64,000 bases of DNA from Limisphaerales bacterium (lineage in GTDB: Bacteria; Verrucomicrobiota; Verrucomicrobiia; Limisphaerales; AAA164-E04). Below the pieces are notes generated by a model. It saw only the letters and a program-made list of their open reading frames with translations. It was not told the DNA's origin and ran no database searches. The translations under genes were made by a program, and so were the position numbers. The stretch is from positions 2,515,371 through 2,579,370 of the forward strand of contig OZ245740.1 in assembly GCA_965227305.1 (NCBI GenBank), read 5' to 3'. Numbering within the stretch: the stretch's first letter is position 1; every line of letters starts with the position of its first letter. Of this stretch, positions 35,996 to 54,944 are shown piece after piece.

Positions 35996-36071
35996 GGACT
36001 CGTAGCTCAATCAGCAGAGCCACCCGTTGTCTGCGGGAAGGTTGAGGGTGCAACTCCCTTCGAGTCCGCCA
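35996..36071 (+). tRNA. tRNA-Asp (GTC) with A18/G55 elbow, CCA encoded
   Basis: The parse is GGACTCG TA GCTC AATCAGCA GAGC C ACCCG TTGTCTG CGGGA AGGTT GAGGG TGCAACT CCCTT CGAGTCC G CCA. The acceptor and D stems are perfect and the discriminator is G73. Oddities are an A27/A43 mismatch and T37. Confidence 0.7.
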
Positions 36072-36076
36072 GTTTC

Positions 36077-36112
36077 CCCTTGGGGGTTCGGTTGAAAGCG
36101 AACCCCCAAGGG
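36077..36112 (+). other. Perfect 14-bp hairpin in the spacer of the tRNA array
   Basis: CCCTTGGGGGTTCG, loop GTTGAAAG, CGAACCCCCAAGGG. It is followed by ATGCAAC, which resembles the array's T-loop (TGCAACT) without a 3' stem. Confidence 0.6.
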
Positions 36113-36137
36113 ATGCAACCAAGAGAATTGAATTTAA

Positions 36138-36215
36138 GTCCGTGAATGCAAAGCAGCTCGAGCACTCTGCCCTTCAAGCAGAACCTAGTCGGTGCGAGTC
36201 CGATCACGGATACCA
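36138..36215 (+). tRNA. tRNA-Glu-like (TTC in canonical register) with C33 and A18/G55 elbow, CCA encoded
   Basis: The parse is GTCCGTG AA TGC(A) AAGCAGCTCG (A)GCA C TCTGC CCTTCAA GCAGA ACCTA GTCGG TGCGAGT CCGAT CACGGAT A CCA. The 1:72 pair is a G-T wobble, and loop position 33 is C rather than U. Confidence 0.6.
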
Positions 36216-36221
36216 GATTTT

Positions 36222-36296
36222 GTCCGCGTAGCTCAGATAGATTAGAGCGCCGCCCTACGAAGGCGGAGGTCGCAGGTGCGAGTCCTGCCGCGGATA
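36222..36296 (+). tRNA. tRNA-Arg (ACG) with A18/G55 elbow, no encoded CCA
   Basis: The parse is GTCCGCG TA GCTC AGATAGATTA GAGC G CCGCC CTACGAA GGCGG AGGTC GCAGG TGCGAGT CCTGC CGCGGAT A. All stems are perfect apart from a G1-T72 wobble. A20 and A73 are present. Confidence 0.8.
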
Positions 36297-36302
36297 CTTT
36301 AT

Positions 36303-36377
36303 GGTGGTCATGTTGTAATAGTAGCATCACGCCCTGTGACGGCGTCCGTGCCGGTGCGAATCCGGTTGGCCACCCCA
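36303..36377 (+). tRNA. tRNA-His (GTG) with encoded G-1, C73, A18/G55 elbow, CCA encoded
   Basis: The parse is G(-1) GTGGTCA TG TTGT AATAGTA GCAT C ACGCC CTGTGAC GGCGT CCGT GCCGG TGCGAAT CCGGT TGGCCAC C CCA. The 5' and 3' ends match the classic bacterial tRNA-His pattern GGTGG...CCACCCCA. Confidence 0.8.
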
Positions 36378-37806: not shown

Positions 37807-40800
37807 ATGATTCCAAGCTTCGGACAACATCAAACAGCAATGCGGGCCAAGACATTCCAATCCAGGAAAGAACGCGTCCCGTCCCTTCCGCCCCGCCCAG
37901 TCGGAACGGTGTCGCCGACCGACACGAGATACCGCCGGTCGCCCCTGATATTCACCGCACCGTTTGGCAATCTGGCCACGTCTCTCTTTGCACTCTGTGC
38001 ACTCATCTCGGTCCTGACCACGGCGCCCTGCACGCAGGCAGCGGAAAGAGCCGCTCCGTATCGCGTCACGAATTGGCAGGTTGAGGATGGTCTCCCCCAG
38101 AATACGATTCAGAAGATCACCCAGACATCGGACGGCTACCTCTGGTTGGCAACCACACATGACGTGATTCGATTCGACGGTCTTGAATTCCGAATTCTCG
38201 CTGGTGACGATTTAAGCAACTTCGACTTCCGCAGTGTTCGGTGTCTCTTTGGCGACCAGGATGGGGCTCTTTGGATCGGGACGAATCAAGGGCTAATTCG
38301 GTATCAGGAAGGCGAACTCAGTTGGATCGACGGCCCCGAAGAATTCGCGCCAATCAAGATCAACAACATCTGTCAGGCACCGAACGGCCGTATTTATATG
38401 ACCTCAAAACTCGCTGTGTTCGAGTTCAGAGACGAGGTGCTCGTTCCCATCACCGAAGAGGGTCCAGAATCACCGGACGGCGGTTGGGTCATCACAGCGG
38501 ACGCTAAGAATCGGGTCTGGGTCAGTTGGGGGAACACGCTCTATCGGCGCGAAAACGACCAATGGTCGAGAGAGATCCAATTCCCCCGCATTATAAACTA
38601 CATTTCAAGCGATAGCGATGGAACCATTTGGTGTGGGCTCAATGCCGGTTACTTCGCTTGGTTGAAGCCCGGCGGTAAGGAAAACATCAAGGTATATCCC
38701 GGGGGCTCCATTTTTGACGTCGCCCAGAATCAAAAGGGAGATGTCTTCTTCCGCGTTTCCGACCGCCTTCATCGCTTTCCAGATGGCGAAAACGTTCCGC
38801 TTTTCCTTCAGAACGGGGAACCCGTTGAGCGGATACAGATCATTTTTCAAGACCGAGAAAAAAACCTCTGGTTGGGAACCAAGGGCAAAGGCCTGGTGCT
38901 CTTAGAACCGCAACCATTGGCAACCTACTCCACCGAAGCAGGCCTCCCCTATCCCGAAGTCAAAACCATCGCGCAATTCGATGCAGACTGTCTCTGGCTA
39001 GGAACAACGGGCGGAGGCCTGGCAAAGCTTCAAGGTGAAACCTTTCACCCCATCGAGTTCACGGGCTATTCGAATATCGGCGCGATACAGCGATCAAGGG
39101 ATGGCCAACTTTGGGTTGGAACCTACGGCAATCACCTCTGGCACATCGATCAGGGCCAGCCCACCATCGAAACCCGCAGCCGAGCCCTCACCGGCCGCTG
39201 CCTCTTTGAAGACATTGAAGGAGCCCTGTGGGTTGGCGGAGAAGGCATGGGAGCGGAGCGCCTGACGTCGAATCAAGTCGTCCGACTCGATACGGGCAGC
39301 GGATTGGTTTCCGACAATGTTCGCTGTTTCGCCCAGGATCAATCGAACGCGATCTGGATCGGGACGGATCGCGGCCTGCACCGCTATTGGAACAACAAAG
39401 TCGAAGCCTTCACGACACACGAGGGTCTACGAGACGCACGCGTTCAATCCCTGTTTGTCGACTCCAGCGGCACCCTTTGGATCGGGACCGAAGCTCGCGG
39501 GTTGACGCGGTTCCAAAACGGAAGTTTCGATACGATCCGTACGGAACAAGGTTTCTTCAGCGAGAGCGTCGCTCAGATGCTAGAGGATGACCTCGGATAC
39601 CTTTGGCTCGGCACCAATCGGCGGCTCTTCCGCACCCAGTTGGACGAGCTCAACCGAGCCTTCGATCAAGGGGAGGATAAACTCATCGGAAAATCGTTCG
39701 GCAAAGAGGACGGGATGCGCAGCCAAGAATGCACGGGAGGCTTTCAACCCAACTGCCTCAAAGCGTCTGATGGGATTCTGTGGTTCTGCACCGCGGACGG
39801 TGTGGTTCGCGCAGATCCCGCCTCCGTCCAAGAGAAAGCCGTCTTGCCCGACATTCACATTGATCTCTTCCTCGCCGACGGCGAACCGGTTCGAAAGGAG
39901 AACGCATCAGACTCCGAGACGTTTGATCTCGTTCCCAAGTTGGGAGTCTACGATTCCTTCGGAGCTTCTTCCGTTGCTCAGGATTTGAAAGAGAATCGGT
40001 TCGTCGTCCCTCCCGGAGCGGGACGTCTTGAGATTCACTATACTGGGATCAACTTCACGGCACCGACCAGCGTGCACTACCGCTATCGACTGAGCAATTA
40101 CGATACCGACTGGACAGTGGCGGGTTCACAAAGCATCGCTGCCTACACCCAAGTCGCTCCCGGAACCTACGAATTTGAGGTTCAAGCAGGAAACAGCGAA
40201 GGTAAATTCAACCCCGTTTCGAGGAAGCTCGCCTTTGTGGTGCGGCCGACGTTGATTCAAAGCGGGTGGTTTCGCGTCAGCGTCGGCCTCGGCGTCTGTG
40301 CCGCGCTGGTAGCGTTGACCTACGGCCCCATTCAGCGCCGCCGACAGTTGGCAAAGATGCGAATCCAAATCGCTCGCGATCTCCACGATGAAGTGGGGTC
40401 CAACTTGGGTTCCATTTCGCTCTATAGCCAACTCGCCCGGGAAAAAGCCGGGGAAACCTCACCTGCTGTGGAAGAGTTTGACGAAATCACCCGAACGATC
40501 CACCGAACCGCCCAATCTCTTCGAGACGTCATCTGGTTCACAAATCCAGAATTCGATACCTTACGGGGGATGCTCCAACAGATGGAAGACACCGCCAATC
40601 GGATGTTGGTAGGCAAGCAAATCGCCTTCAAGGCGGATTGTCCCGTATCCGATCGCCGGCTTTCCTTGAATTTCCGGCGTCAAGTGTTCCTCATCTTTCG
40701 AGAGATCACCCACAATATCCTCAAACACTCCCAAGCGAGTCACGTCAAGATCACCATCTTCGCTCGAAGAAACGTTCTCTCCCTCAAAATTGCCGACGAC

Positions 40801-40947
40801 GGTGTTGGGTTTGATCCGAACAACGGACGCCGCGGAAATGGGCTAAACAACATGCAACAACGGGCAGAGGAATTGAAGGGGCGGGTCACGTTCCATTCCC
40901 AACCCGGGCAGGGTTCAACCATCCTTTTTGAAATCCCCATGACGTGA
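37807..40947 (+). CDS. Sensor histidine kinase (Reg_prop repeats + Y_Y_Y + TM + HisKA_3 + HATPase_c), paralog of 1824..4892
   Basis: The blades include GYLWLATTHDVIRFDG, GALWIGTNQGLIRY and GTLWIGTEARGLTRF. The Y_Y_Y motif is YRYRLSNYDTDWTVAGSQSIAAYTQVAPGTYEFEVQA. The H-box is IARDLHDEVGSNLGSI and the ATPase part reads IADDGVGF...GNGLNNMQQRA. The exact start is uncertain. Confidence 0.9.
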   Translation: MIPSFGQHQTAMRAKTFQSRKERVPSLPPRPVGTVSPTDTRYRRSPLIFTAPFGNLATSLFALCALISVLTTAPCTQAAERAAPYRVTNWQVEDGLPQNTIQKITQTSDGYLWLATTHDVIRFDGLEFRILAGDDLSNFDFRSVRCLFGDQDGALWIGTNQGLIRYQEGELSWIDGPEEFAPIKINNICQAPNGRIYMTSKLAVFEFRDEVLVPITEEGPESPDGGWVITADAKNRVWVSWGNTLYRRENDQWSREIQFPRIINYISSDSDGTIWCGLNAGYFAWLKPGGKENIKVYPGGSIFDVAQNQKGDVFFRVSDRLHRFPDGENVPLFLQNGEPVERIQIIFQDREKNLWLGTKGKGLVLLEPQPLATYSTEAGLPYPEVKTIAQFDADCLWLGTTGGGLAKLQGETFHPIEFTGYSNIGAIQRSRDGQLWVGTYGNHLWHIDQGQPTIETRSRALTGRCLFEDIEGALWVGGEGMGAERLTSNQVVRLDTGSGLVSDNVRCFAQDQSNAIWIGTDRGLHRYWNNKVEAFTTHEGLRDARVQSLFVDSSGTLWIGTEARGLTRFQNGSFDTIRTEQGFFSESVAQMLEDDLGYLWLGTNRRLFRTQLDELNRAFDQGEDKLIGKSFGKEDGMRSQECTGGFQPNCLKASDGILWFCTADGVVRADPASVQEKAVLPDIHIDLFLADGEPVRKENASDSETFDLVPKLGVYDSFGASSVAQDLKENRFVVPPGAGRLEIHYTGINFTAPTSVHYRYRLSNYDTDWTVAGSQSIAAYTQVAPGTYEFEVQAGNSEGKFNPVSRKLAFVVRPTLIQSGWFRVSVGLGVCAALVALTYGPIQRRRQLAKMRIQIARDLHDEVGSNLGSISLYSQLAREKAGETSPAVEEFDEITRTIHRTAQSLRDVIWFTNPEFDTLRGMLQQMEDTANRMLVGKQIAFKADCPVSDRRLSLNFRRQVFLIFREITHNILKHSQASHVKITIFARRNVLSLKIADDGVGFDPNNGRRGNGLNNMQQRAEELKGRVTFHSQPGQGSTILFEIPMT

Positions 40948-41681
40948 ATACGTCCGTTGTCGCTCGTTGCATTTGCCCTCAGGATCGTTTCGAACGGGCA
41001 ATGGCATTAGCGACAATAGACGAGATTATTCCGACCAGGGAACGGGGCAAAGTATCGGTGTGGGCCGTAGAAGACAGCGCCTCCTTCCGATCTGCAGTGG
41101 TGCAAGTCTTGAATTCGATCTCAGGCATCCGTTGCACCCAATCATTCCCAACGATGGACGTCGCTCTCGAGTCGCTCGGCAAGGGCAGTCCACCAGACGT
41201 CTTGCTGATGGACATTCATTTGCCCGGGAGTTCCGGCGTGGACAGCGTCATCAAGATTCGATCCGAGTTACCGGACCTCCCCATCCTCTTGCTAACCATC
41301 AATGAAGATCATTCATCGATCATGCGAGTCATCTGTGCAGGCGCCCTGGGCTACCTCGTAAAAACAGCCTCCGTGAATACCATCAAAAGCGCAATCTACG
41401 AGGTCAATCACGGAGAAGCCGACATGCCCCCACAAATCGCCCGATCGGTACAAACGCTGTTTGACGACTGCCCACCGAAAAACTCTCGAGATCGCCTCAG
41501 CTCACAGCAACAACAAACCCTTACGCTGCTTACCGAAGGAAAGAACCGTTCTGAGATTGCTGAAATCCTCAACTGCGAAGCCACCGCGCTGGGAAGGGAC
41601 ATCCGAACCCTTTACGGCAAACTCCACAAACACAGTCGAAGCCCCGCAGCCGCTAAACTGATTCGGAACAAGACGTTCTGA
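40944..41681 (+). CDS. NarL/LuxR-type response regulator
   Basis: The REC domain reads VSVWAVEDSASF...DVLLMDIHLPGSSG and the HTH reads LSSQQQQTLTLLTEGKNRSEIAEILNCEATALGRDIRTLYGKL. The GTG start overlaps the kinase stop (GTGA). Confidence 0.85.
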   Translation: MNTSVVARCICPQDRFERAMALATIDEIIPTRERGKVSVWAVEDSASFRSAVVQVLNSISGIRCTQSFPTMDVALESLGKGSPPDVLLMDIHLPGSSGVDSVIKIRSELPDLPILLLTINEDHSSIMRVICAGALGYLVKTASVNTIKSAIYEVNHGEADMPPQIARSVQTLFDDCPPKNSRDRLSSQQQQTLTLLTEGKNRSEIAEILNCEATALGRDIRTLYGKLHKHSRSPAAAKLIRNKTF

Positions 41682-42372: not shown

Positions 42373-43776
42373 CTACCCCATGAAGCCCATGTCGGAAGTC
42401 TCAAAGTTCCCAATGTTGGGAAACACCTGTGGCAAATCCGAATCCGCCACGCCGAACCAACGCGCCATCGTGGCCCCATACTGATCGACAGAATACTTGG
42501 GAATCCAGCGTCCCCGCCCCACATCATCGGGACTGTTCCCGAGATTCGGGTTTGGATACTCCCCATACACTTTGCCTCCATTCACGCAACCGCCCATGAC
42601 GATGTGATGACTTCCCCAACCGTGGTCTGAACCTCGCCCATTTGAATCAAAGGTCCGGCCAAAGTCTGACGCGCTGAACGTGGTCACGTTGTCATGCACG
42701 CCCAACTCGCGCATCGCACTATCAAACGCCACCAAGGATCCATTGATCCCCGCCAACAATCCGGCGTGCGGTCCCAACTGATCCCCATGAGTATCGAATC
42801 CGCCCGTCGCGCAGAAGAAGATCTGTCGCCGCATACCCAAGGCCGCTCGCGCCTCAATCAGCTTAGCGATCATGCGCATCTGTTGTCCAAGCCCACTAGC
42901 AGGAAAATTGGGAAAGTCTTGCGTGTTTTCCAAAGCTGCCGCCAACACGCCATCACTATCGATCGCTCGCTTGGTAATATCGGCAAACGCCTCTTCAAGT
43001 AAGTTGTGATGGTCCAGGTTTAGCAAGTCGACAAACGCTTGGTACTTGCGTTGTTCCCCGCCGTTGCTGCTGTTCGAGAGCCCGATCCCCGAACTCCCGC
43101 CGCTCGAAAGCCGAAACGGAACAATCTCACGCCCCACCTGAAAGAAGTTGGATCCCGAGATGGAAATCGACATCGAGACGCTCTGATCGTTGTAGAGCGA
43201 GTGCAGCAAATCGGCGATTCGCCCTCCCCACCCGGTGTCTTCATAAGCCGCGGCATTCTCCGGCACCGAGGTCTGCCACAACACTTGCTGGTCGTTGTGA
43301 GAAAACAGATTGGGCGGCAACGCGGACCGGCGGTTTCGAAAGTCCGACAAGGTGACCGGAGCCAAAAGTGTCCCAACGTTTTGAATCAAGGCGCAGTCAC
43401 CCGCATTGAAGAGCTGCTGAATGCCACCCATTGAAGGATGCAGAGCCATCGGCTGCGCACCGGCGCCAACCGTCAATGGCAACAGGATACCCTGAGGCAA
43501 AGCCAAGTTCTGACGCCCGGCGGCATACAACGCATAGGTCTCCGGATCCATGGGAATGAGCATATTCGACGCATCATTCCCTCCATAGAGAAAGAGACAG
43601 ACCAAGGCCTTGTAATCATCGCCACCCGAGGCGGCGGCGTTGATTTGCCGCAAGTCCATGAGCGTTGACAACAGGCTCATGGACCCCACTGCCGCACAGG
43701 CTCCCTGCGCAAGAAAAGACCGACGTGATAAGGGATTGTTTTCCAGATTCATAGGGATCCTAACGTTGGATGGCAA
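42373..43776 (-). CDS. DUF1501 domain protein (sulfatase/alkaline-phosphatase-like fold), Tat signal
   Basis: The twin-arginine signal is SRRSFLAQGACAAVGS. The DUF1501-type motifs are GGNDASNMLIP, GGFDTHGDQ and GRGSDHGWGSHH. The start may be Met at 43752, which would remove the overlap with the upstream gene. Confidence 0.85.
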   Translation of the reverse strand: MPSNVRIPMNLENNPLSRRSFLAQGACAAVGSMSLLSTLMDLRQINAAASGGDDYKALVCLFLYGGNDASNMLIPMDPETYALYAAGRQNLALPQGILLPLTVGAGAQPMALHPSMGGIQQLFNAGDCALIQNVGTLLAPVTLSDFRNRRSALPPNLFSHNDQQVLWQTSVPENAAAYEDTGWGGRIADLLHSLYNDQSVSMSISISGSNFFQVGREIVPFRLSSGGSSGIGLSNSSNGGEQRKYQAFVDLLNLDHHNLLEEAFADITKRAIDSDGVLAAALENTQDFPNFPASGLGQQMRMIAKLIEARAALGMRRQIFFCATGGFDTHGDQLGPHAGLLAGINGSLVAFDSAMRELGVHDNVTTFSASDFGRTFDSNGRGSDHGWGSHHIVMGGCVNGGKVYGEYPNPNLGNSPDDVGRGRWIPKYSVDQYGATMARWFGVADSDLPQVFPNIGNFETSDMGFMG

Positions 43777-46700
43777 ACTGAGGAGAGGTGATGATCAATT
43801 GGATCGCGGATGCCGCTCGATAACCGGGATCCTGATTCAAATCTTCCAGGGTAGCACGGAGGGCCGTTCGCATCTCGGACGACATGCTGTTCGCCATCAA
43901 CACTAAGTCGAGGTAATCAAGCAATGCGTCTACATCGGAAGCAACGGCAATGGCCGCAGCCAGGTTCAAGCGGATGCGATCCGCGAAACCCGAGCCTGAG
44001 CCAAATCCACGGACAATGCCCTGATGCACAAAGTTAGCCCCGTCAATTGCTCGCACCTCGGAAGTAATCTGGAACTCCGGCGCCACCAACCCGGCGTCTT
44101 GAATGGGTCCGGACGGACTGTAGTCTTTATCGAAAAAGTTAAACACGCTCGGAGCATGAACGGGAGCTTGCCCGAGCGGGCCCAGCACCGATCTGCCAAA
44201 GCCAAACCGGCCCAACGCGGGGGGGCTATCACTCTGAAAGTCGTAGAAGGCTCGAATCAGATGGGTTAGGCGAATGATCGGTTCCCGCTGCTTGCCGTAT
44301 CCCGGATCTGTCAGACGACTTGGATCACGCGCTTCTTCGTCCAGCATGATGGCCTTAATGATCGCAGCCATATTGCCGCGTTCTCCCTGGCCGTTATCGT
44401 TAAAGGCGGACGCCACTCGATAAATATAGCCGGGACTCGGGTTGCTCGTCACAAGCCGTTGGATCAAGGCCCGCGCAACGAACGGCCCCATATTGGGATG
44501 ATGGAAGATATTGTCCAAAGCATCAGACAGATCATCATAGGCCGTCTGATTGGCCGGCAACACCACGCCGCCAAACAGCGTTTTAGGATCTGTATCATGA
44601 TACTCTTCGAAGGCCATCATCGGGCTCATGAAGTCGGCCTCGCCACTCCGCGCCCGAAAGAACTCGCTTGATCCGCTAAAGGTCCACCCCGTGAATACCC
44701 GCGAAAACGTCAGGATCTCCTCCATCCCGTAAGTCGGGATCAAGTCACCGTCCGTATCCGTCTGGTCCGTGCCATCCGGATTCAACCACTTGAGCCCAAT
44801 CGTAAACAACTGGAGCAATTCCCGACCATAGTTCTCATCCGGCAATAACCCGAGTTCTGGATTCGCTTTCGAGCTACGAACAATCGTGAGATAGATGCCC
44901 ATCATCGGGCTCAGTGAGACTTCTTCCATGATGTCCCGGTAATTCCCAAACGCGTTTCGAACCATAATGTCATAGTAGTTCGCGACGGCCATCGGGTATT
45001 GCTGTAGCGCCGGGCTACGGTCTGACACCACGAAGATCTCACTCAACGCAAAGGCCACCCGCTGCCGCAATTGATCCGGCGCTTCCATCGCATGGGTCCA
45101 CCAGGTATACATCCGATCATCGACCCGCGGCGTACGCGGCGTGACCGAAGGCGCACCCATCACGTCCTGGCCAAAGTCATAGAACCCATCGCCGAGCAGC
45201 GTCATTGCCCACTGCAAATGATCCACGTGCAAGGTCGGCGGGAGATCAATCTGATCGTTCAGCCAGGGTTCAATTCCCATGGATTGCACGCGCTGAATCT
45301 CAGCGTGAGAAGGTCCAAAGGTTCCCTGTGCGAGCAGCCGAGCCGCATCCTCCGGACTCACCGCACCGGGCAGCGTCCAACCCGATGGAGCGGGCGGGAT
45401 AAACCCTGGCGGAGGCGGCGGTGGCCACGACGCACTCGTCCCCTGCCCGACCGGCCGCTCGACCCGAATATGCCGCGAAACGATGTCTGAGTGATTCCCC
45501 GAGGAATCGTAGACCGAATACGCCACATGGTAATTCCCCGGCGTGTTCGGATCCACCTCACCCACGACTTCGACCCAGTCCGTCAAATCACCATCGACGT
45601 TATCCAGCGCCTGATAGCCCGGTTCCGCGTAGCCGGCTCCTACGAGGATCGTCTGCGAGATAGGGCCACTCAGTGTGATCACCGGCGGTTCCAAATCATT
45701 GGCCGCCGAGAACGGAGAAAGGAATCCACCAGCAATGATCTGACGTTCCCCGATTCCGGGTCCGGTCCACGCAGCAGCCAAGTGATCGCCGCCGCCGCCC
45801 TCTTTGTGCCAGATTTCGATGTAATAGCGCGTCCCTCCGACCAACGGGATTCGCTCAGAAGTCTGCTCCGGGAACTTGTCCCACTGCTCAGCCTGCGTCC
45901 AACTCGGCACGCGAGCCACGGGATAGGCGGACGCGGGATCATCCGTCTCTCCGAGCCACAACTGGGTCTCATCATCACCCGAGATCCAAAATTGGTAATC
46001 ACCATCGGCCGGCGGATGAAGAAACCCTCGAATCCGAGTGCCATAACTATTTCCCCAGCCCGGGGCCACTTTCAGAGCACTGATGATCTCGCGGAAATCG
46101 GGCTGATCCGGAAAGCTCGGTGCGGCTTCCAAGTGACGAAGTCGGCTGCCCGAGATGCCTTCATACACCTCTCGCAAGATTCGCCCTGAACTTGGGGAGG
46201 CCGGAGCAGCAACGTGAACCTGCAAATCATCTGAGGCTCGATTGAGTCCGTCATTGGCCCTGAGACGAAGCGTATAATCGCCCGGCCCCGGAAAGACCGC
46301 GGTTGCCGACGCGGCGTTGTCACGGGTCAACAACACGTCGTCTCCTCCCACCTGTTCCCAACTCGAAACAACCTGATAGGGTCCCGGCGCCAAGTCGTGG
46401 ACCAAGCCCTCAAGCGGCAAGAACGGCGCTGGCCAAGCCAATTGCACATCCGGGCCCGCAATGACGAACAGATCGGAATCTGACAATAACGCGGGGCCAT
46501 AGGGTTCGAGAAAACCGCCGGGAATGATGACCGGCTCTTCCGTCTCCGTGCGCGTCCAGCCCACCGCTACGTGGTCCAAACCGCTTCGTTCCTTTTGCAA
46601 GGCCTCGACGTAGTACCGCTGTCCCCCGGTCAGTTGTAACGGGCGGGAACGCTGACTCGGATACCGGTTCCACTGACGGTACTTCGTCCATCCGTCAATA

Positions 46701-49700
46701 AAGGCAATGCGCTCCGGATTTGCATCCGTTCCATCCGCGCCAAAATAAAGTTCCGAATAGTCGTCTCCCGAAAGCCACAGGTAATAGGTGCCTGTTTCCG
46801 GCGGGTAGAGGTAGCCACGCAAACGCGTGCCGTAGTTCTCCGCCCAATCACGCGGAGTTTCGAAATCAGAAACCAGATCGGAAAAGGTCGGCGAATCCGG
46901 GAACAGATCACTCTCAACGAGATTCGAAACCCGCACACCGCCCAATTGCATCCACACCTCTCGCAGCAGGCCACTCGGCCCCGAGCCAGCCGGTGGTGCA
47001 ATCGACACCGCAATATCCCGGTAGGCATCATGCACCCCATCACCCGCTCCAAACCGGATCACATAATCCCCCGGGGTATCAAAGATCGCCGTCGTCAACT
47101 GAGAGTTCGGATCCGTGAAGGATACATTTCCACCGTTCAACACCTGCCAGTAATAGTCCAACGAGCGCGGTCCTTTGCGCAGGTCAAAGGCAAGACCTTG
47201 CAGTGGCAACTGGGCTTCCGGCCAAACGAGTTCGTAACGGTTCGCAGTAAGCAGCTGAATCTGACCGTCAAACGGAACGGCCGGGGCAAACGGCGAAAGA
47301 AAGCTCCCGCCAATCACGCGCGGTTCCGACCACTGAGGCCCCGTCCATCCCACGGCAAAATGGTCCGAGCCGCCGGACTCTTTGTGAAAAGCCTGGAGAA
47401 AATAGCGCTGTCCCGATTCCAATCGGATCGGACTCGAAGCCTGATACGGTTTCCGAAACCAGTCACGGGGACGATTCCAACTATTCACGAACGCCACCCG
47501 CACCGCGTCCTCCGGACGATCACTCGAACTGAGCCAAAGCTCCGAATAGTCGTCTGAAGACAGGAAGAACTGGTAGTCCCCCGATTCCGGCACGTGCAAA
47601 TAACCCCGGAATCGAGCCCCGTAGTCATTCGCCCAATTCGAAGGCACTTCGAGTTGGGAAATCACATCACTGATGGTCGGCGGCGCCTGGAACCGCTCGG
47701 ATTCCAGCAAGGCTTCGACCGTCTTTCCCCGAACCCCTAGCCAAACCTCTCGGTTCACCCACCCCACATCCGGCGCCAAGGGCGGGAGAATCTCCACCAC
47801 AACTTGATCCGAGTGCCGATCCACGCCGTCCGTACCCGTCAACTCAAACACATGTCGCCCCGCCTCCAAAATCTGAACGGAGGTCTCCAACGACTGCGGA
47901 TTTTCAATAACGACGGAGCCCGGAGCCGCCGCTGAGACCAGTCGCCATTCAAACGTCGGCGCACGGCCGTCTTCCGGTCGCGCGTAATGGAATGCTCCCG
48001 CCAAACTAAAACTTGATTGGGGTTGAAAGTGCTCTTGATCCATCCCCGCGTGAACAAACAGAACTTGTCCCGGAGACGTTGGTGTTCCGACCTCGAATGG
48101 AGAAAGAAACCCCCCGTGAATGATCTGCCGAGAAGGCAGTCCGGGCCCTTCCCACGCCACTTCCACGTGGTCTCCCCCGCCGCCTTCTTTGTTCAAGACT
48201 TCAATGTAATACCGGGTTCCCGGCACCAACGAAACCGGCTCCGACTGTTGTTCGGGGTACCGATCCCATTGCTCGACCCGCGTCCAACCTTTGACGAACG
48301 CAATCCGCTGCCGTTTTGCGGGATCTCCATCCGGACTTAGATACAACTCACTCTGATCGTCTCCAGAAATCCAAAACGTAAACTCGCCTGGCTCCGGAGG
48401 GTGAAGATACCCGAGCAGACGCGTGCCGTAGGCATCGGACCAATCTACCGGAGTCTCCAGACTCGGCAGCGTATCCCGCAGAAAAGGCTTATCTGGAAAG
48501 TCCGGATGATCCGTGAGTCGGGATAACTTGCTACTGCCAATTCCAAACCAAACATGGCGCGTCACCCCGCCCAATTCCGGCGCTAGGGGCGGCCGCACGG
48601 TCACAGCCAATTCTGCCTGCCGCTCGTGGAGCCCATCACTAGCGACAACCCGCACCACGTAATCACCCGGTCTCGGAAAAACAGCGGTCGTCTCAAAACT
48701 ACTCGGATTCTCAAACGTAACCCCCGATCCAGCAACACCCGGCTCCCACCTTACACTCACGGCCTCGGGCCCCTCTTCCAAGTCGAACACCGTAGCGGCA
48801 ACGTCCATGCGATCGTTCGGCCAGTAGGTAAACGAATCGCCCTCCAGGACAATCTGCAACTCACCGAGATACGGTGGCGCCGCTTCAAACGGGATCAAGT
48901 AACTCCCGGCAATAATCTCCCGATCCGGAATCCCCGGGCCCCGCCAAGCCGCGGCAAAGTAGTCGGCCCCGCGGGCTTCTTTAAACAACGCTTCAACGTA
49001 ATAACGCTGTCCCGCCACCAAGGGGATCCCGGCCGCGTGTTGGCTGGAGCGACGATCCCACTGCTCCCGCCCCACCCATTGAGTGAGCGAGGCCACGAGA
49101 CTTGCATTCGCCGGGTTGTCATCTGGGCTAAGCCACAATTCAGAGTAGTCATCACTGGCAATCCAGAGATCGTAAAGCCCGGTTTCTGGAGCAATCAAAT
49201 ATCCCCTCAGGCGACTGCCGTAGTCGTCATTCCAGTTCGTCGGCAACTCAAAATCTGGCACCACATCGACAACATCCGCGGGTTGATCCAAAACACCACT
49301 CTCCACCAAATCCCCCACGCCGCGCCCGCGAATCCCAAGCCAGACCTCTCGGGTCAAACCACCCGCTTCCGGGTCAATGGCCGCACGAATCTCGACCCGC
49401 ACGGTATCCATGGCCGTTTCCGCATCATCATTCAAAGCCAGCTGGAGTTCATATACCCCTTCTCCCGGGAAATGAGCCCGCGTCTCAAAGGCACTCGGAT
49501 CCTCAATCACCACACCCGGCGTTCCCGAAATCTGAGACCAGTTCGCTCGGGGTTCTCCATCCGATTTTTGCAGATACCGATGTCCGCCCCGAAGCACCAA
49601 CTCACGCCGCGGACTGTGCAGCACCCGATCTTTCCCCGCCAAGGCGATCAAGTTGGCAGCCGGATCGAAATCCGGGAACGCCCGAAACGGCGTCAGAAAC

Positions 49701-51595
49701 TCTCCCTCAAGAATCTCGGGCCCGGACTGCAACGGGCCTTCCCAAAATACCGTAACGTGGTCACCGCCCCAATTATCCTTTTGCAACACTTCAATGTAGT
49801 AACGTTGCCCGGCTTCCAAGGTCTGGACTCCGGACCGCTGTTCGGGAAAGCGATCGATTTGGTGAAGTCGCGTTCCTCGTGGCACACTCGCAATCACAAC
49901 CGCGTCATCCGGATTTTCAGAGGGACTCAGTAACAGCACCGCACTGTCATCCCCGGAAAGCCAGAACCGGTACGCACCACTCACCGGAGGATGAACAAAT
50001 CCCCGCGTTCGAGCCCCGAACTGGCTCGCCCAATTCACCGGCCCATCAAATGAGGGAAGCTGCGCCACCGTGTCAGGAAAAAACGGAAAGCGTAAATCCG
50101 CCTGCAACGATTCCACACTCGATCCTTTGATCCCCAACCACGCTTCCCGGGTGACGCCACCGACATCCGGTCCCAATTCCGGGTACACCGAGACGTTGAC
50201 CTCATCAGAGACCACTTGGCCCTCATGTTCGAATCGGAGTTCAAACGCATACTCACCGTACGTCGGCACCCAAACCTCCGTCTCCAAATCAGTCGGCGAG
50301 GCAATATTGGCACCCGCTAGACCAACGGATCGCCACTCCACGCTGGGGTTTTCAATCCCGCTGCCCAACGGAAAGAACCGCCCGGCAAGCCGAAAGGTTT
50401 GTCGCGGGAGGTAGATGTATTGATCGGCTCCGGAGCTGAGAACAAAGTCAGGGTCCCCAACGTACTGAGGCCCGTCTTTGAACGGAGTCAGAAACGCTCC
50501 CGAAATGACCTGGCGTTCCGGCACCACGGGACCACTCCAGGCGACCGCGAGATTGTCGCCCCCCCAACCTTCTTTATGCAGCGCCTCAATGTAGTATTCT
50601 TGCCCTGCGACCAAGGCAATCGGCACAGAACGCTGCTGCGGAAACTTGTCCCAACCGCGCACCGGGGCCCAACTGGGCACCCACGCGATCAGCTCTCTAG
50701 AAAGGGGTTCGTCAGAAGTCCCGAGATACAGCTCCGATTGATCGTCCCCCGCGATCCAGAAGGTGTAGAGTCCCGACGAGGGCGCTCGCAACAACGCACG
50801 CAAGCGCGTGCCATAGGTATTCGCCCATTTGGTCGGCGCCTCAAAATCCATCAAGACATCCGAAAAAGCGGGCGATCCAGGGAAATCCGGATGAGCGCGA
50901 AGATTCTTCAATCCCGAACCACCGATTCCTAACCAAACTTCCCGATAAACCCCACCGACAACGGGTGGAGGCAACGGCGGTGCGACCGGATTCCCATTGG
51001 GCACGCCAAACATCACCGAACGCCAAGCCAACTGATCCAAGCGAATCTCTCCCGTGCCTGGCAAGAATCGTAGACTCGACTCATGAGAAAGCGTCAGCGA
51101 CTCCAGCAGTTCTCCATCCACTCGAATCTCAAATCCATTGGGACTGGCCTGAATCTCGAAAGTCTGCCAAGCCGAAGTCCCTTGACTCTCCGGTAGGGTC
51201 AGGGTCAAAGGCTCAAGCTCAATCTGTTCCGTCCCCAGTCCCGAACCAGCGACCTCGAACGATACCAACCAGCCACCCCCCGCAGGATCCATCAAGGGAA
51301 TCTCGAACACCCCATCGCCTTCCGGCGCAACGAGGGACAGCACCTGCCCGTGCTCAACATCATCCTCCACAATCTCAAGAGCCATCCCCTCAGCAACCAC
51401 TCCGATCACCTCACCAAAATCGACCGGTCCCAGGCCATACCCTTCCTCCGCCTCAAATCCCAAGGTCCCTCCCCGAACGGCACCTCCCGAAGCCCAACAA
51501 ACGAACAACGCCACGCAGAGCCCTTGCCAGCTCAAACAAGACCGGAACATCCGCCCCAACCGCACCGCACCACCCGACTGATATGATTCAAACAT
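43760..51595 (-). CDS. Giant secreted protein: N-terminal domain + 7 PA14 modules alternating with Ig-like modules + DUF5011-like Ig domain + C-terminal DUF1800 domain
   Basis: The 2611-aa ORF has a signal peptide. Seven PA14 cores are present (GQEYYIEALHKEGWGGDNLAVAWSGP, GQRYYIEVLQKDNWGGDHVTVFWEGP, GQRYYVEALFKEARGADYFAAAWRGP, GTRYYIEVLNKEGGGGDHVEVAWEGP, GQRYFLQAFHKESGGSDHFAVGWTGP, GQRYYVEALQKERSGLDHVAVGWTRT, GTRYYIEIWHKEGGGGDHLAAAWTGP). The last ~480 aa follow the DUF1800 pattern (LLAQGTFGP..., ...FDKDYSPSGP...). Confidence 0.85.
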   Translation of the reverse strand: MFESYQSGGAVRLGRMFRSCLSWQGLCVALFVCWASGGAVRGGTLGFEAEEGYGLGPVDFGEVIGVVAEGMALEIVEDDVEHGQVLSLVAPEGDGVFEIPLMDPAGGGWLVSFEVAGSGLGTEQIELEPLTLTLPESQGTSAWQTFEIQASPNGFEIRVDGELLESLTLSHESSLRFLPGTGEIRLDQLAWRSVMFGVPNGNPVAPPLPPPVVGGVYREVWLGIGGSGLKNLRAHPDFPGSPAFSDVLMDFEAPTKWANTYGTRLRALLRAPSSGLYTFWIAGDDQSELYLGTSDEPLSRELIAWVPSWAPVRGWDKFPQQRSVPIALVAGQEYYIEALHKEGWGGDNLAVAWSGPVVPERQVISGAFLTPFKDGPQYVGDPDFVLSSGADQYIYLPRQTFRLAGRFFPLGSGIENPSVEWRSVGLAGANIASPTDLETEVWVPTYGEYAFELRFEHEGQVVSDEVNVSVYPELGPDVGGVTREAWLGIKGSSVESLQADLRFPFFPDTVAQLPSFDGPVNWASQFGARTRGFVHPPVSGAYRFWLSGDDSAVLLLSPSENPDDAVVIASVPRGTRLHQIDRFPEQRSGVQTLEAGQRYYIEVLQKDNWGGDHVTVFWEGPLQSGPEILEGEFLTPFRAFPDFDPAANLIALAGKDRVLHSPRRELVLRGGHRYLQKSDGEPRANWSQISGTPGVVIEDPSAFETRAHFPGEGVYELQLALNDDAETAMDTVRVEIRAAIDPEAGGLTREVWLGIRGRGVGDLVESGVLDQPADVVDVVPDFELPTNWNDDYGSRLRGYLIAPETGLYDLWIASDDYSELWLSPDDNPANASLVASLTQWVGREQWDRRSSQHAAGIPLVAGQRYYVEALFKEARGADYFAAAWRGPGIPDREIIAGSYLIPFEAAPPYLGELQIVLEGDSFTYWPNDRMDVAATVFDLEEGPEAVSVRWEPGVAGSGVTFENPSSFETTAVFPRPGDYVVRVVASDGLHERQAELAVTVRPPLAPELGGVTRHVWFGIGSSKLSRLTDHPDFPDKPFLRDTLPSLETPVDWSDAYGTRLLGYLHPPEPGEFTFWISGDDQSELYLSPDGDPAKRQRIAFVKGWTRVEQWDRYPEQQSEPVSLVPGTRYYIEVLNKEGGGGDHVEVAWEGPGLPSRQIIHGGFLSPFEVGTPTSPGQVLFVHAGMDQEHFQPQSSFSLAGAFHYARPEDGRAPTFEWRLVSAAAPGSVVIENPQSLETSVQILEAGRHVFELTGTDGVDRHSDQVVVEILPPLAPDVGWVNREVWLGVRGKTVEALLESERFQAPPTISDVISQLEVPSNWANDYGARFRGYLHVPESGDYQFFLSSDDYSELWLSSSDRPEDAVRVAFVNSWNRPRDWFRKPYQASSPIRLESGQRYFLQAFHKESGGSDHFAVGWTGPQWSEPRVIGGSFLSPFAPAVPFDGQIQLLTANRYELVWPEAQLPLQGLAFDLRKGPRSLDYYWQVLNGGNVSFTDPNSQLTTAIFDTPGDYVIRFGAGDGVHDAYRDIAVSIAPPAGSGPSGLLREVWMQLGGVRVSNLVESDLFPDSPTFSDLVSDFETPRDWAENYGTRLRGYLYPPETGTYYLWLSGDDYSELYFGADGTDANPERIAFIDGWTKYRQWNRYPSQRSRPLQLTGGQRYYVEALQKERSGLDHVAVGWTRTETEEPVIIPGGFLEPYGPALLSDSDLFVIAGPDVQLAWPAPFLPLEGLVHDLAPGPYQVVSSWEQVGGDDVLLTRDNAASATAVFPGPGDYTLRLRANDGLNRASDDLQVHVAAPASPSSGRILREVYEGISGSRLRHLEAAPSFPDQPDFREIISALKVAPGWGNSYGTRIRGFLHPPADGDYQFWISGDDETQLWLGETDDPASAYPVARVPSWTQAEQWDKFPEQTSERIPLVGGTRYYIEIWHKEGGGGDHLAAAWTGPGIGERQIIAGGFLSPFSAANDLEPPVITLSGPISQTILVGAGYAEPGYQALDNVDGDLTDWVEVVGEVDPNTPGNYHVAYSVYDSSGNHSDIVSRHIRVERPVGQGTSASWPPPPPPGFIPPAPSGWTLPGAVSPEDAARLLAQGTFGPSHAEIQRVQSMGIEPWLNDQIDLPPTLHVDHLQWAMTLLGDGFYDFGQDVMGAPSVTPRTPRVDDRMYTWWTHAMEAPDQLRQRVAFALSEIFVVSDRSPALQQYPMAVANYYDIMVRNAFGNYRDIMEEVSLSPMMGIYLTIVRSSKANPELGLLPDENYGRELLQLFTIGLKWLNPDGTDQTDTDGDLIPTYGMEEILTFSRVFTGWTFSGSSEFFRARSGEADFMSPMMAFEEYHDTDPKTLFGGVVLPANQTAYDDLSDALDNIFHHPNMGPFVARALIQRLVTSNPSPGYIYRVASAFNDNGQGERGNMAAIIKAIMLDEEARDPSRLTDPGYGKQREPIIRLTHLIRAFYDFQSDSPPALGRFGFGRSVLGPLGQAPVHAPSVFNFFDKDYSPSGPIQDAGLVAPEFQITSEVRAIDGANFVHQGIVRGFGSGSGFADRIRLNLAAAIAVASDVDALLDYLDLVLMANSMSSEMRTALRATLEDLNQDPGYRAASAIQLIITSPQFAIQR

Positions 51596-51886: not shown

Positions 51887-51920
51887 TTTTGCACTTTGCA
51901 GTTCGCAGTTCGTGGTTTGC
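51887..51920. repeat. Degenerate TTTGCAG heptamer array, locus C
   Basis: TTTTGCAC TTTGCAG TTCGCAG TTCGTGG TTTGC is about five tandem heptamers. It sits in the divergent promoter region between the giant gene (start 51595) and the gene starting at 52052. Confidence 0.5.
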
Positions 51921-52051
51921 CCCCCACTCCGAGCCCCGCATCATCTCAAGCCCCCATAAAAATCCAGCATTTTCACTTGCCGCTCCACCACAAGCCATGG
52001 GACCCTACATTAGGATCAGCTAATATCGTCACGACCTCAAATCGAACGCAT

Positions 52052-53365
52052 ATGAAAATGGCATCGGGCTTGAAATCGCTCCTCATCGTAGGGACAACCA
52101 CCCTGACCCTAAGCACCTCAGCGGCCACCTTCCCTCACCGCGTGGCCTACATCGGCAGCGACGACCAGCGCGCCAACGAATACGAAGCGTTCCTAAACCA
52201 ACACTTCCAAGAAGTCACCCAGCACGACCGAGCCCAGTTCAAGCCGGTCGACGCAACGGGGGCCGATGTAGTGATTCTGGACTGGCCGCAAGGCGTCGGC
52301 CCCTTTCCTCCGACAGACTGCCCTCTCGGGGAACGCGCTAAATGGAACAAACCAACCGTGCTCCTCGGCAGCGCAGGCCTCAACGTTGCAGTCACCTGGA
52401 AGGCCGTCGGCGGTGTGGGCTGAACGTGCCTAAAACCTTTCGCGCACGTGTTGCGCGACCACGAGATCTTTCAAAAACCATTACCTATCGAAGTCGGCAA
52501 CACGATCCCGAAGCCTCGCCCCGAAGCTTGGCGCTATGAGACCGAAAAGCCGATCCTACGAGTGCTCCCGCTCGTCACCGATACCACCAAGACGTACCGC
52601 TCCGGTTGGTGCACCTACACGTACTACTTCCCCGACACACCAGACCTCGAAGTGATGAGCGGAGGCATCAACACCAAAACAATCGAGGCCGGTGGTCTCT
52701 GGCGGCAAGGCCACCTCATGCACTTTGGATTCGATCTCTCGCCGACTGAGATGAATGAGAACGGGAGAGCCCTCTTGATCAACTCGATCGTCTACATCGC
52801 CAAATTCTCAGACGATCGCCCGATCCCGACCGTTCCATCCGTATTCGCCGGAATCGCCACGCGGCACCGCAAGTTCATAGATCGAACGCTTTCGCGTCAG
52901 GATCTCAATGGACAGACGATTCCATATCTCAAGACACTCGTGGCTGAAGAGACCTTGGGGGCGGCTCGCACCGAGAACGTCGACAAACTCAAGGCGTACT
53001 TCGCCAAAGTCGGCGAATACCTCTACGCACGTACGGACGGCAAGCTCATCATCGACAAAGACGCCCAAAAACTTGGCATCTCCCCTCGGAGTCCCCAGTT
53101 CCTAACAAAGACCGTTGCGGAGCTTTCCGAGAGCCGGCGACGATCCGACGCAGCCCGCCGGATGCTCGACCGCTATCGCCCACACGAGGCGCCACCCGCC
53201 ACCGCTCCAAAACGAGATTGGAAATCCTGGCTAAACGAAAACAAAAACTACCTCTTCTTCTGTGATGGGGGCTGGTACCGCTGGTATCTAGATCCGCTAG
53301 CCAAGAAACGCGGCATCCCCACGGCAGAACTACGCGGACCAAAACGGGCCACGCCTTCCCATTAG
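52052..53365 (+). CDS. Secreted protein of unknown family interrupted by one in-frame TGA (52421-52423): candidate selenoprotein, read-through gene or pseudogene
   Basis: Track ORFs 51896..52423 and 52448..53365 are in the same frame and are separated only by the TGA plus 8 sense codons. The joined sequence reads ...VTWKAVGGVG-[TGA]-TCLKPFAHVLRDHEIFQ.... The signal peptide MKMASGLKSLLIVGTTTLTLSTSAA starts at ATG 52052. Confidence 0.5.
52440..52458 (+). promoter_or_regulatory. SECIS-like hairpin downstream of the in-frame TGA
   Basis: TCGCGCA (52440-52446), loop CGTGT, TGCGCGA (52452-52458) form a 7-bp perfect stem. The loop starts 24 nt after the TGA and contains GU. Confidence 0.4.
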
Positions 53366-53415: not shown

Positions 53416-53952
53416 CTACTCGTTTACGACGGAAACGACAGCCGTGAGTTCGACGGTTCGCGGCGGCCAACAGATCTCCAGATCACAGGCTTGATAGCCT
53501 AACTGGCAAGAAACGGTGACTTCTCCACGAGCGGTATCCGGATCAAGGACGAGTTCACGGCCAAAGACAAAGCTCCCCTCATAGACATCATTGCTGCCAG
53601 TGACATCCTTCGACGCAGGCGGTAGAATCCAATCACCCACCGGGGCAAAGGAGTCACTCGGCGCCAGTTCGAGTGTGGTCGCTATCCCAGGCCCGGAGTT
53701 CTGCAAGGAATAGATATGCCAGCCCTCAGCCATATCGACCTTCACAACAAAATGAACGCGACTCCCCGCCTGAGTGGGTGACGGCCGCACTGCCGCCGTC
53801 ACAGCCAAAGGTGCATGATTCGCGGGAGGAGCAACCTCAATGGGTTCAGCCAGGCGCTGAATGGACTCGTAGGTCAGCGGTCCTACGGGAATCGAATCCG
53901 TTCGACAGCCAGCTAAGCAGAACAACGCCAGTATTACTAAATTCCCGCGCAT
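53416..53952 (-). CDS. Lipoprotein with DsbD-N/DsbC-corrector-like (thiol:disulfide interchange N-terminal) domain
   Basis: The lipobox is MRGNLVILALFCLAGC, from ATG 53952. The domain pattern is HFVVKVDMAEGWHIYS...LGYQACDLEICWPP. The track start at 54147 runs through a REP-like element and was rejected. Confidence 0.75.
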   Translation of the reverse strand: MRGNLVILALFCLAGCRTDSIPVGPLTYESIQRLAEPIEVAPPANHAPLAVTAAVRPSPTQAGSRVHFVVKVDMAEGWHIYSLQNSGPGIATTLELAPSDSFAPVGDWILPPASKDVTGSNDVYEGSFVFGRELVLDPDTARGEVTVSCQLGYQACDLEICWPPRTVELTAVVSVVNE

Positions 53953-54048
53953 GCCCAACTCTACAACATAAGCGCACCTTTTCCAGCCTCCGGAAACCCT
54001 CAATCCGCCTTTCGTCAAGAGTCCGTCCCGAATCAGACCAAGTTCAGA

Positions 54049-54126
54049 GGGCTGAAGGCCCGTTCCGTTCGAGCCCAGGGCAACGCCCTGGGACCTCCCC
54101 ACAAATGAATACCGAGCCCGGTAAGG
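54049..54126. repeat. REP-like cluster of short GC hairpins
   Basis: The hairpins are GGGC-TGAAG-GCCC, CCCAGGGC-AAC-GCCCTGGG (54074-54092) and GCCC-GGTAA-GGGC. The translations (SPGQRPG..., ...QGVALG...) are the kind of junk peptide I associate with widespread intergenic palindromic elements. Confidence 0.4.
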
Positions 54127-54356
54127 GCGGCCCAAACAAGCTTTCACCCGTCACCGCATCCCCTCCAACATGACGACTGACTTTCTACAATAAATCTCGG
54201 TCACTCGCGAAAGATTGGGCCGTTCCATACGTATCTAAAGGGAAGGTCTTCATACACGTTACCAGGAATGGGTCGCAACCCTGAGACTCCTGACCTCCAG
54301 CAAACAGAGTGTATATCGAAAAACACGACAGAGACCACGGAACAAATAGATCTAAT

Positions 54357-54944
54357 ATGAAAACCCTACACACCATCATCCGCCTCGCAGCGATCGTTTC
54401 AGCAGTCAAAATCACCCTAGCCGTCCAGGCCGTCAGCTTTGCCTTCGGGCCTTCGATCCATAGTACCACAACGGGCACACTGAACGACGGTGGAGTCGAA
54501 ATGACTTATCTCAATCCCATTGGGAACAACAATAACCGAATCGATGCCTTTGCCAACGGAATCGCCTTCGACAATGGATTCAATAATGATCTGCAATCCG
54601 TGGATTTCACCTTCGATACCCAGGTTCGATTCGACTCCTACGTGGTCGGCGACCAGGCTCACGGTGGGGGCTCTCTGAACGTGAGGTTGAACGGGATCAT
54701 CCAAGAGGCAGTGGATGTATCCAGTCTGGGAAGCCAGAATCTGACGACGCCCTTCGTGATCGGAACCGGACAAACCCTTACCCTGCAGAACGTCGTGCCC
54801 GGTACGGACGAGTTTGCGATCTCGTCACTGTCTTTCACCGTTGTGCCAGAACCCCAAGAAACGGTGGCTTTCGCCCTTCTTGCCCTAGGGGCATTCGTTT
54901 TCGCGCGAAGGTTCGCACCTCAGGCTGCGCGCCACTTGGCGTAA
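54357..54944 (+). CDS. PEP-CTERM sorting-signal protein
   Basis: The signal peptide is MKTLHTIIRLAAIVSAVKITLAVQA. The C-terminus VPEPQETVAFALLALGAFVFARRF combines a PEP motif, a TM segment and a basic tail. Confidence 0.75.
   Translation: MKTLHTIIRLAAIVSAVKITLAVQAVSFAFGPSIHSTTTGTLNDGGVEMTYLNPIGNNNNRIDAFANGIAFDNGFNNDLQSVDFTFDTQVRFDSYVVGDQAHGGGSLNVRLNGIIQEAVDVSSLGSQNLTTPFVIGTGQTLTLQNVVPGTDEFAISSLSFTVVPEPQETVAFALLALGAFVFARRFAPQAARHLA

Follow-up and report, generated by a model that had tools for sequence, protein, structure and literature searches.

We analysed a 64,000-nucleotide stretch of the genome of a Limisphaerales bacterium (GenBank assembly GCA_965227305.1, contig OZ245740.1, positions 2,515,371 to 2,579,370), which is called the window throughout, and in it a gene on the forward strand that is interrupted by an in-frame TGA codon. 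The results indicate that this TGA most likely encodes selenocysteine (Sec) in a secreted protein of an unnamed family, which is common in soil and sediment bacteria. It is very likely that positions 52052..53365 of the window form a single gene for a secreted selenoprotein, with Sec recoding via a hairpin in the coding sequence and with a putative role as a selenol-based redox oxidoreductase. The recoding mechanism is the ordinary bacterial one; the new element is a widespread and systematically mis-annotated selenoprotein family. The initial annotation of the window, which was made from the letters alone, had singled out the TGA as a candidate for a novel selenoprotein. This proposal is now backed by an aligned Cys in homologues, by TGA in relatives, by agreement with the criteria for a bacterial selenocysteine insertion sequence (SECIS), by covariation in the hairpin and by the lack of a match in Pfam, NCBIfam or a recent selenoprotein catalogue. 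The features of the gene are as follows.

52052..53365, plus strand: complete coding sequence of the predicted selenoprotein; 437 codons, UGA as codon 124, stop codon TAG at 53363-53365 (from translation and full-length homologues)
52052..52126, plus strand: probable Sec-type (export) signal peptide MKMASGLKSLLIVGTTTLTLSTSAA; read by eye, with an approximate cleavage site
52370..52381, plus strand: GSAG turn, codons G106-S107-A108-G109, invariant in alignment A3 (see below); putative position at the amidotransferase nucleophile elbow, judged by the order of secondary-structure elements
52421..52423, plus strand: UGA codon predicted to be read as selenocysteine (U124); aligned to an invariant Cys, with TGA also in relatives
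52427..52429, plus strand: codon TGC for Cys126, which completes the U-x-C motif; no variation at C126 in alignment A3
52440..52458, plus strand: bacterial SECIS-type hairpin within the coding sequence; 7-bp stem, 5-nt loop CGUGU

The open reading frames (ORFs) 51896..52423 and 52448..53365, which had been joined in the initial annotation, do lie in one frame and are separated by the TGA (52421-52423) and eight sense codons (52424-52447). Translation from the ATG at 52052 gives WKAVGGVG before the stop and TCLKPFAHVLRDHEIF after it; read through, the product is LGSAGLNVAVTWKAVGGVG-U-TCLKPFAHVLRDHEIF and the motif at the recoded site is U124-T125-C126. TGA is otherwise a normal terminator in the window, as had been stated, and is the stop codon of 11 of the 32 ORFs with at least 300 aa. 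The recoding is therefore a local event and not a general reassignment of the codon. The 313 codons 3' of the TGA are intact, with a third-position G+C content of 0.66 compared with 0.68 upstream. The eight codons between the TGA and the GTG at which the second ORF opens are conserved as T-C-L-x-P-F-A-H/Y. This GTG had been listed as the only start of the second ORF; it sits within the hairpin loop and is GGG in most relatives, which means that there is no conserved restart codon. The N-terminus of the protein reads as a probable signal peptide for secretion, and the homologues likewise have short hydrophobic N-termini. A scan for promoters and terminators around the gene gave results at chance level only. 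Screening of 107 TGA-split ORF pairs for a second selenoprotein in the window left only 52052..53365 with a good coding signal and a Cys context. A UxxC candidate at 30293 on the minus strand was rejected; it translates as a shadow frame.

The homologues of the joined protein give the first line of evidence for Sec. A collection of 5.8 billion proteins contained 525 relatives. Most are annotated as 'hypothetical proteins', have a length of about 435 aa and come from Verrucomicrobiota and Planctomycetota. These match the joined sequence over 92-100% of its length, and the full-length homologues span the site with the motif GGxG-C-T-C. An alignment of 86 sequences with 85 full-length homologues (A3) shows that G120, G123, C124, T125 and C126 are invariant; the TGA column always holds Cys. 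We refer to proteins with this Cys as Cys-forms and to those with a TGA as Sec-forms. H224 does not vary either, and the conservation of H137 and C187 is 90% or higher; some Cys-forms (P0062, P0074, P0088) have Ser or Ala in place of C187. The initial annotation had raised the possibility that homologues end or begin at this point. Instead, all 85 full-length homologues are single proteins that run through the site with an invariant Cys at the TGA column; the site thus marks no boundary between genes or domains. In a library of 1.8 billion proteins, grouping at 50% identity divides the family into 1212 clusters. Among the 150 best-matching representatives about 45 begin just after the Sec position and must therefore be split gene calls. 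An exact-sequence look-up returned no record for the product of the window (P0001) or for the Cys homologue P0003.

The second line of evidence comes from relatives in which the TGA itself is present. The two closest matches, from loci L001 (54% identical) and L002 (64% identical), are N-terminally truncated gene calls, and their contigs show the same in-frame TGA; both read GGSG-TGA-ACG-TGC and continue in frame. Contigs were searched with the DNA pattern A-G-x6-W-x3-G-G-x-G-TGA-T-C, which has no chance match in the window. After six chance matches had been dropped, TGA was found at the same codon in at least 114 metagenome contigs, all of which read on into family sequence. The GTDB contigs, with one genome per species, contained 50 stretches with the pattern. 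Forty-seven of these are true family members, and they belong to Pirellulales, Gemmatales, Isosphaerales, other Planctomycetota, Verrucomicrobiota and Acidobacteriota. The UGA, the downstream frame and the hairpin are conserved as a set across three phyla, in well over 150 independent sequences. A rough neighbour-joining tree of 88 Sec-forms and 108 Cys-forms contains at least 10 switches between Sec and Cys, a count that is indicative only because the two forms are unequally sampled. At one locus from a metagenome-assembled genome of Gemmataceae (L141) the frame fails a few codons after the TGA (TCLGPPQGWWSRS followed by a stop); this may be a pseudogene or an assembly frameshift.

The third line of evidence is the hairpin. 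The segments TCGCGCA (52440-52446) and TGCGCGA (52452-52458) form seven perfect pairs around the loop CGTGT (52447-52451), just as had been described. The published model for bacterial SECIS elements calls for an apical loop of 3-9 nt, an upper stem of 4-16 bp, a G in the first two loop positions, a distance of 16-37 nt between UGA and loop, and a minimum free energy of at most -7.5 kcal/mol (PMC13188914, Fig. 2 legend). The general SECIS geometry, which the initial annotation had invoked in outline, holds for all four published criteria: the loop has 5 nt, the stem 7 bp, a G stands at loop position 2 followed by U, and the spacing is 23 nt, with a folding energy of -10.1 kcal/mol. Taken by itself the window hairpin is within chance expectation (z-score of -1.10 for the 61-nt fold; 36 of 200 shuffles fold at least as well). 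Its significance arises from the comparison with relatives and not from the window sequence alone.

This comparison was made with 101 distinct segments, each comprising the TGA and the following 60 nt. Columns 20-26 are paired with columns 32-38 in 93.8% of the cases; if the 3' side is shifted by 1-3 columns, the paired share drops to 7-50%. There are 27 double-change cells compared with 4.6 in shuffles, and none of 500 shuffles reached the observed value. One of the pairs links the first position of a Tyr/His codon with the third position of a Leu codon; it shows U-A in 77 cases, C-G in 16 and U-G in 6, and is never mismatched. At another pair there are 90 cases of G-C and 7 of U-A; in the latter Ala GCG/Arg CGC changes to Ala GCT/Ser AGC, meaning that the residue is altered and the pairing preserved. 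Among 77 Sec-forms with TAC for Tyr, 73 have TTA or CTA for Leu. In five Cys-form genes, by contrast, this Leu codon is always CTG or TTG and there is no stable hairpin at this place, which likewise speaks for an RNA signal in the Sec-forms. In a strict test, which counts a contiguous upper stem only, 73 of the 101 relatives satisfy all four SECIS criteria. Taken together, the covariation argues that the hairpin is a SECIS-type element under selection at the RNA level, which is maintained by compensatory substitutions.

The GCT/AGC combination (TGA+19..+38) occurs in a Sec-form subclade with the peptide V-A-Y-G-L-S-D (L006, L014, L017, L081, L085, L108 and L122); L138 shows the same peptide, judged by protein sequence only. 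In a second register the hairpin lies 2 nt further upstream and has the loop AUGGC or ACGGC. This arrangement is found in a clade with F-A-H-G-A/V-R/Q (L003, L005, L007, L011, L025, L041, L067, L075, L094, L099 and L116). The G of these loops falls outside the first two positions, which is atypical under the published model. A further hairpin in the window, ACGTGC (52424-52429) with GCACGT (52444-52449), had been offered as an alternative that starts right at the TGA. It is present in the sequence as described; it is not conserved among relatives, most of which read GCGTACGG, and as a signal it was ruled out on this ground.

The protein had not been recognised from its sequence, and the searches bear this out: the joined protein has no match in Pfam-A or NCBIfam release 20 even at E = 1, and a profile search of PDB sequences gave no match at E ≤ 10. 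An AlphaFold model of the Cys homologue P0003, which is 49% identical, was of high quality (predicted local distance difference test 93.7, predicted template modelling score 0.92). A Foldseek search of the PDB with this model resulted in 55 matches at E ≤ 0.001, and the listed ones are almost all class I glutamine-amidotransferase (GATase) domains. The matches cover the N-terminal ~240 residues and include the GATase subunit of GMP synthase, PabA, TrpG, HisH and Pdx2, with template modelling scores per target of 0.5-0.59 and a probability of 1.0 for single-domain targets. The C-terminal half of the model is helical. Overall, the model comprises an alpha/beta domain that resembles class I glutamine amidotransferases and, after it, a helical domain. 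From the model we infer that the invariant GSAG lies at the nucleophile-elbow position of the amidotransferases, that the invariant His224 lies on the strand preceding the last helix of the domain, and that U124-x-C126 lies on the strand after the elbow helix, where both side chains would face the same way. His224 is followed by F-G-F-D/E; class I glutamine amidotransferases are characterised by a His-x-Glu pair. Judged by the order of secondary-structure elements, the elbow would carry the Ser of GSAG instead of the Cys of GxCxG; Pfam gave no GATase match.

The gene downstream in the window is convergent and encodes a protein with a DsbD_N-type domain.

53416..53952, minus strand: convergent neighbour, DsbD_N-type (PF11412), probably a lipoprotein; Pfam E = 2.4e-9 on the longer ORF 53416..54147

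The listed 243-aa ORF 53416..54147 on the minus strand probably starts instead at the ATG at 53952. This gives a product of 178 aa, which is near in size to a 187-aa gene in L173. The neighbour begins with MRGNLVILALFCLAGC, has a lipoprotein-type start (LAGC) and keeps its C-x4-C pair (QACDLEICW). Clustering of neighbouring ORFs across the loci was swamped by overlapping shadow ORFs in GC-rich DNA, and a dedicated DsbD_N profile was used instead. Of 154 non-redundant Sec-form loci, 42 have DsbD_N according to this profile, either beside the family gene or fused to it; the domain is on the same strand and directly upstream in 34 loci, and on the same strand and downstream in 4. The upstream gene also occurs in two of five Cys-form loci. 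A C-terminal DsbD_N fusion, which is confirmed by Pfam, is present in the post-TGA ORF of L126. The post-TGA ORFs of L150 and L026 match the DsbD_N profile, that of L026 without a Pfam match; in L133 the domain is encoded by a separate downstream ORF of the same strand, and in P0093 DsbD_N is fused to the N-terminus of the family protein. Several of the upstream genes have CarboxypepD_reg repeats before the DsbD_N domain. No DsbD membrane domain was seen near the family loci. It is because of this recurring link that a thiol/selenol redox role outside the cytoplasm is proposed.

If the known bacterial mechanism applies, SelB carrying Sec-tRNA(Sec) would bind the hairpin 23 nt downstream of UGA-124. 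The codon would then be read as selenocysteine rather than as a stop, and the full 437-residue precursor would be made and exported. U124 and C126, two residues apart on one modelled beta-strand, may form a selenenylsulfide/selenol-thiol redox centre. This centre could exchange electrons with the DsbD_N-type protein that is encoded next door or fused, and the protein would function as an extracytoplasmic selenol-based oxidoreductase. We suggest tentatively, as a possibility with rather less than an even chance, that all this belongs to a selenium-dependent system outside the cytoplasm that has gone unrecognised in Planctomycetota, Verrucomicrobiota and Acidobacteriota: a GATase-like secreted enzyme with a U-x-C motif away from the elbow, a dedicated DsbD_N lipoprotein or fused domain, and Sec as the ancestral and most diverse state.

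Several observations weigh against the interpretation as a Sec-dependent oxidoreductase. Neither the 64-kb window nor related loci totalling about 0.9 Mb yielded selA, selB, selD or a tRNA-Sec. ARAGORN detected no tRNA-Sec in the window and 60 loci, and tblastn with SelA, SelB and SelD from E. coli against the window and all loci gave only weak, short matches (E ~1e-5). Complete gene sets for Sec insertion have been reported in Planctomycetes (PMC4807772); this makes the trait plausible here, albeit not proven. As to the hairpin, 28 of the 101 sequences fail one SECIS criterion in the strict test, and Rfam gave no hairpin match, either at the gathering threshold or at E ≤ 10. RNAalifold on the full 101-row alignment gave an empty consensus because two hairpin registers are mixed in it; when the registers are analyzed individually, the helix appears in 88 main-register rows (-7.95 kcal/mol) and in 11 shifted rows (-10.8 kcal/mol). 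The hairpin is also partly dictated by the amino acid sequence. Five Cys-form genes retain pairing at 4-6 of the 7 positions, with folds of 0 to -5.4 kcal/mol and no stable hairpin, and this partial pairing occurs because the A-Y-x-L-R/K peptide dictates much of the sequence. It follows that a SECIS element could arise or linger with few synonymous changes. Individually, the Cys-form loci L173, L175, L178 and L179 pair at 5-6 of 7 positions and L174 at 4. The link to DsbD_N is frequent and not universal, since 33 Sec-form loci with both flanks available are without the domain. Finally, we infer the redox role and the contact between U124 and C126 from a model, and a role as metal ligands is possible.

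This last point leads to an alternative that keeps the gene and the recoding and assumes another chemistry. In this case U124 and C126, perhaps together with H137, C187 or H224, would bind a metal or metalloid rather than undergo selenenylsulfide cycling. We regard this as unlikely. Another catalogued U-x-C family, the SO_0444 family, is a Cu/Zn efflux transporter, and the candidate His and Cys ligands are the well conserved residues listed above. Furthermore, Sec is a metal ligand in formate dehydrogenase and [NiFeSe] hydrogenase (PMC13188914). However, C187 gives way to Ser or Ala in some Cys-forms, the recurrent partner is a thiol-disulfide relay domain and not a metallochaperone, and there is no match to any metal-binding family in Pfam or NCBIfam. 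We favor selenol redox chemistry for the protein.

It is also conceivable that the family is a real selenoprotein family and that this copy is dead or dying, either because the Sec machinery was lost or because the TGA is a recent nonsense mutation from TGC; translation would then stop at codon 124. A change from TGC to TGA requires only one base, and the machinery was not found within the window. Nevertheless, a dead copy is very unlikely. The post-TGA codons are intact and maintain their third-position composition, the hairpin has no mismatch, and L001 and L002 share its C-G state (CAC with TTG). These two relatives, which are only 54-64% identical at the protein level, also carry the TGA; hence the TGA predates their divergence.

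Readthrough without selenocysteine can be considered highly improbable. It would require a near-cognate Cys or Trp tRNA or a suppressor, and the hairpin would merely slow the ribosome or block access of the release factor. The selenium in the product is predicted from the sequence, and a UGA-to-Trp reassignment is reported in some Verrucomicrobiota (PMC13462651). However, UGA terminates other genes of the window, the aligned residue is Cys and not Trp, and the hairpin resembles bacterial SECIS elements both in its spacing and in the G of its loop. An exchange between Cys and TGA at a conserved Cys that is next to a second Cys is moreover the standard signature of selenoproteins (PMC12013277, PMC13188914). 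Two separate genes, a domain boundary or an assembly error at the TGA have a negligible chance of being the explanation: gene callers do annotate two ORFs here and in relatives, as seen in the 298-aa P0017 and in the 305-aa product of the window itself, but single homologous proteins span the site, the codons between TGA and GTG are conserved and the GTG is not, and the same TGA occurs in more than 150 independent assemblies.

Interpreted as a selenoprotein, the window protein can be compared with known systems. It shares with the bacterial selenoprotein genes described by the SECIS model of Zhang and Gladyshev, such as E. coli fdhF, an in-frame UGA that is aligned with Cys, a second Cys beside the Sec, and a hairpin in the coding sequence just downstream, which has a small apical loop with an early G and a spacing within 16-37 nt (PMC13188914). 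It departs from them in belonging to a new family, in having U-x-C where UxxC or CxxU is usual, and in a fold that is not thioredoxin-like; in addition, a minority of the family uses the hairpin shifted by 2 nt, whose loop AUGGC departs from the rule on the position of the G. The nearest catalogued entry in terms of fold is a CTP synthase-related GATase selenoprotein (NF004836), which has the class I glutamine-amidotransferase fold that is modelled here and is also a predicted selenoprotein. In that family, however, Sec is located in a GxUxG motif, whereas here the motif is G-U-T-C, the apparent elbow contains a Ser (GSAG), the Sec follows ~17 residues later on the next strand, and the protein is secreted. 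The window protein has no NCBIfam match at E ≤ 1 and no GxUxG motif, which would be expected of a member of NF004836.

Serine hydrolases of the peptidase families S51 and S66 are built on the class I amidotransferase fold. The family resembles them in the Ser at the proposed elbow and in a conserved His whose strand precedes the final helix of the domain. There is no sequence match to these enzymes, and S51/S66 enzymes are not known to have Sec or a CxC motif. With the DsbD-dependent periplasmic reductases (DsbC, DsbG, CcmG) and the Sec-containing selenoproteins similar to DsbA, DsbG or TlpA, the protein shares a predicted extracytoplasmic location and a redox-type dithiol/selenol-thiol motif. 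It is genetically linked to a domain of the DsbD N-terminal type, which keeps its Cys pair. Those proteins are thioredoxin folds with CxxC or UxxC, whereas the partner here is a stand-alone or fused DsbD_N. The protein does not belong to the thioredoxin-fold selenoproteins; the motif is U-x-C, the modelled fold is GATase-like, and no thioredoxin-type Pfam match was found.

The family is absent from the 119 prokaryotic selenoprotein families and subfamilies of the 2026 catalogue (PMC13188914, Table 1), as compared by Pfam-A and NCBIfam release 20; cd and PTHR identifiers were not searched. NCBIfam release 20 holds many of the curated selenoprotein models that are cited in the catalogue (PMC13188914). 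Keyword searches of the deep-Sep and BSepDB papers found no mention of Planctomycetota, Verrucomicrobiota, Acidobacteriota or a related family.

Gene finders split the gene, and the whole family is systematically recorded as fragments of ~300 aa in soil and sediment genomes. Once the UGA is read as Sec, the catalytic residue can probably be pinpointed in a family of 1212 clusters with no known function; this reading adds a selenoprotein with a fold other than that of thioredoxin and widens the use of selenium in the three phyla named above. The two hairpin registers and the pair-preserving change from Arg to Ser show that the coding sequence and the RNA signal constrain each other. The recurrent DsbD_N partner, in turn, provides a concrete biochemical hypothesis.

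The remainder of the window contains the following features.

1824..4892, minus strand, and 37807..40947, plus strand: two large Reg_prop/Y_Y_Y histidine kinases, one of them followed by the response regulator listed next
40944..41681, plus strand: LuxR-type response regulator
8643..11966, minus strand: Ser/Thr kinase fused to WD40 propellers
35996..36377, plus strand: tRNA cluster Asp(GTC), Arg(ACG), His(GTG), from the tRNA/Rfam scan
54309..54944, plus strand: 211-aa ORF without a Pfam match, which ends with VPEPQETVAFALLALGAFVFARRF, a PEP-CTERM-like sorting tail
43760..51595, minus strand: protein of 2611 aa; PA14/GLEYA and PKD modules in repeats, DUF1800 domain at the C-terminus (Pfam)
42373..43776, minus strand: DUF1501 gene that follows the DUF1800 gene (Pfam)

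DUF1800 and DUF1501 are a common gene pair in Planctomycetes. The DUF1800 partner in the window is unusually large.

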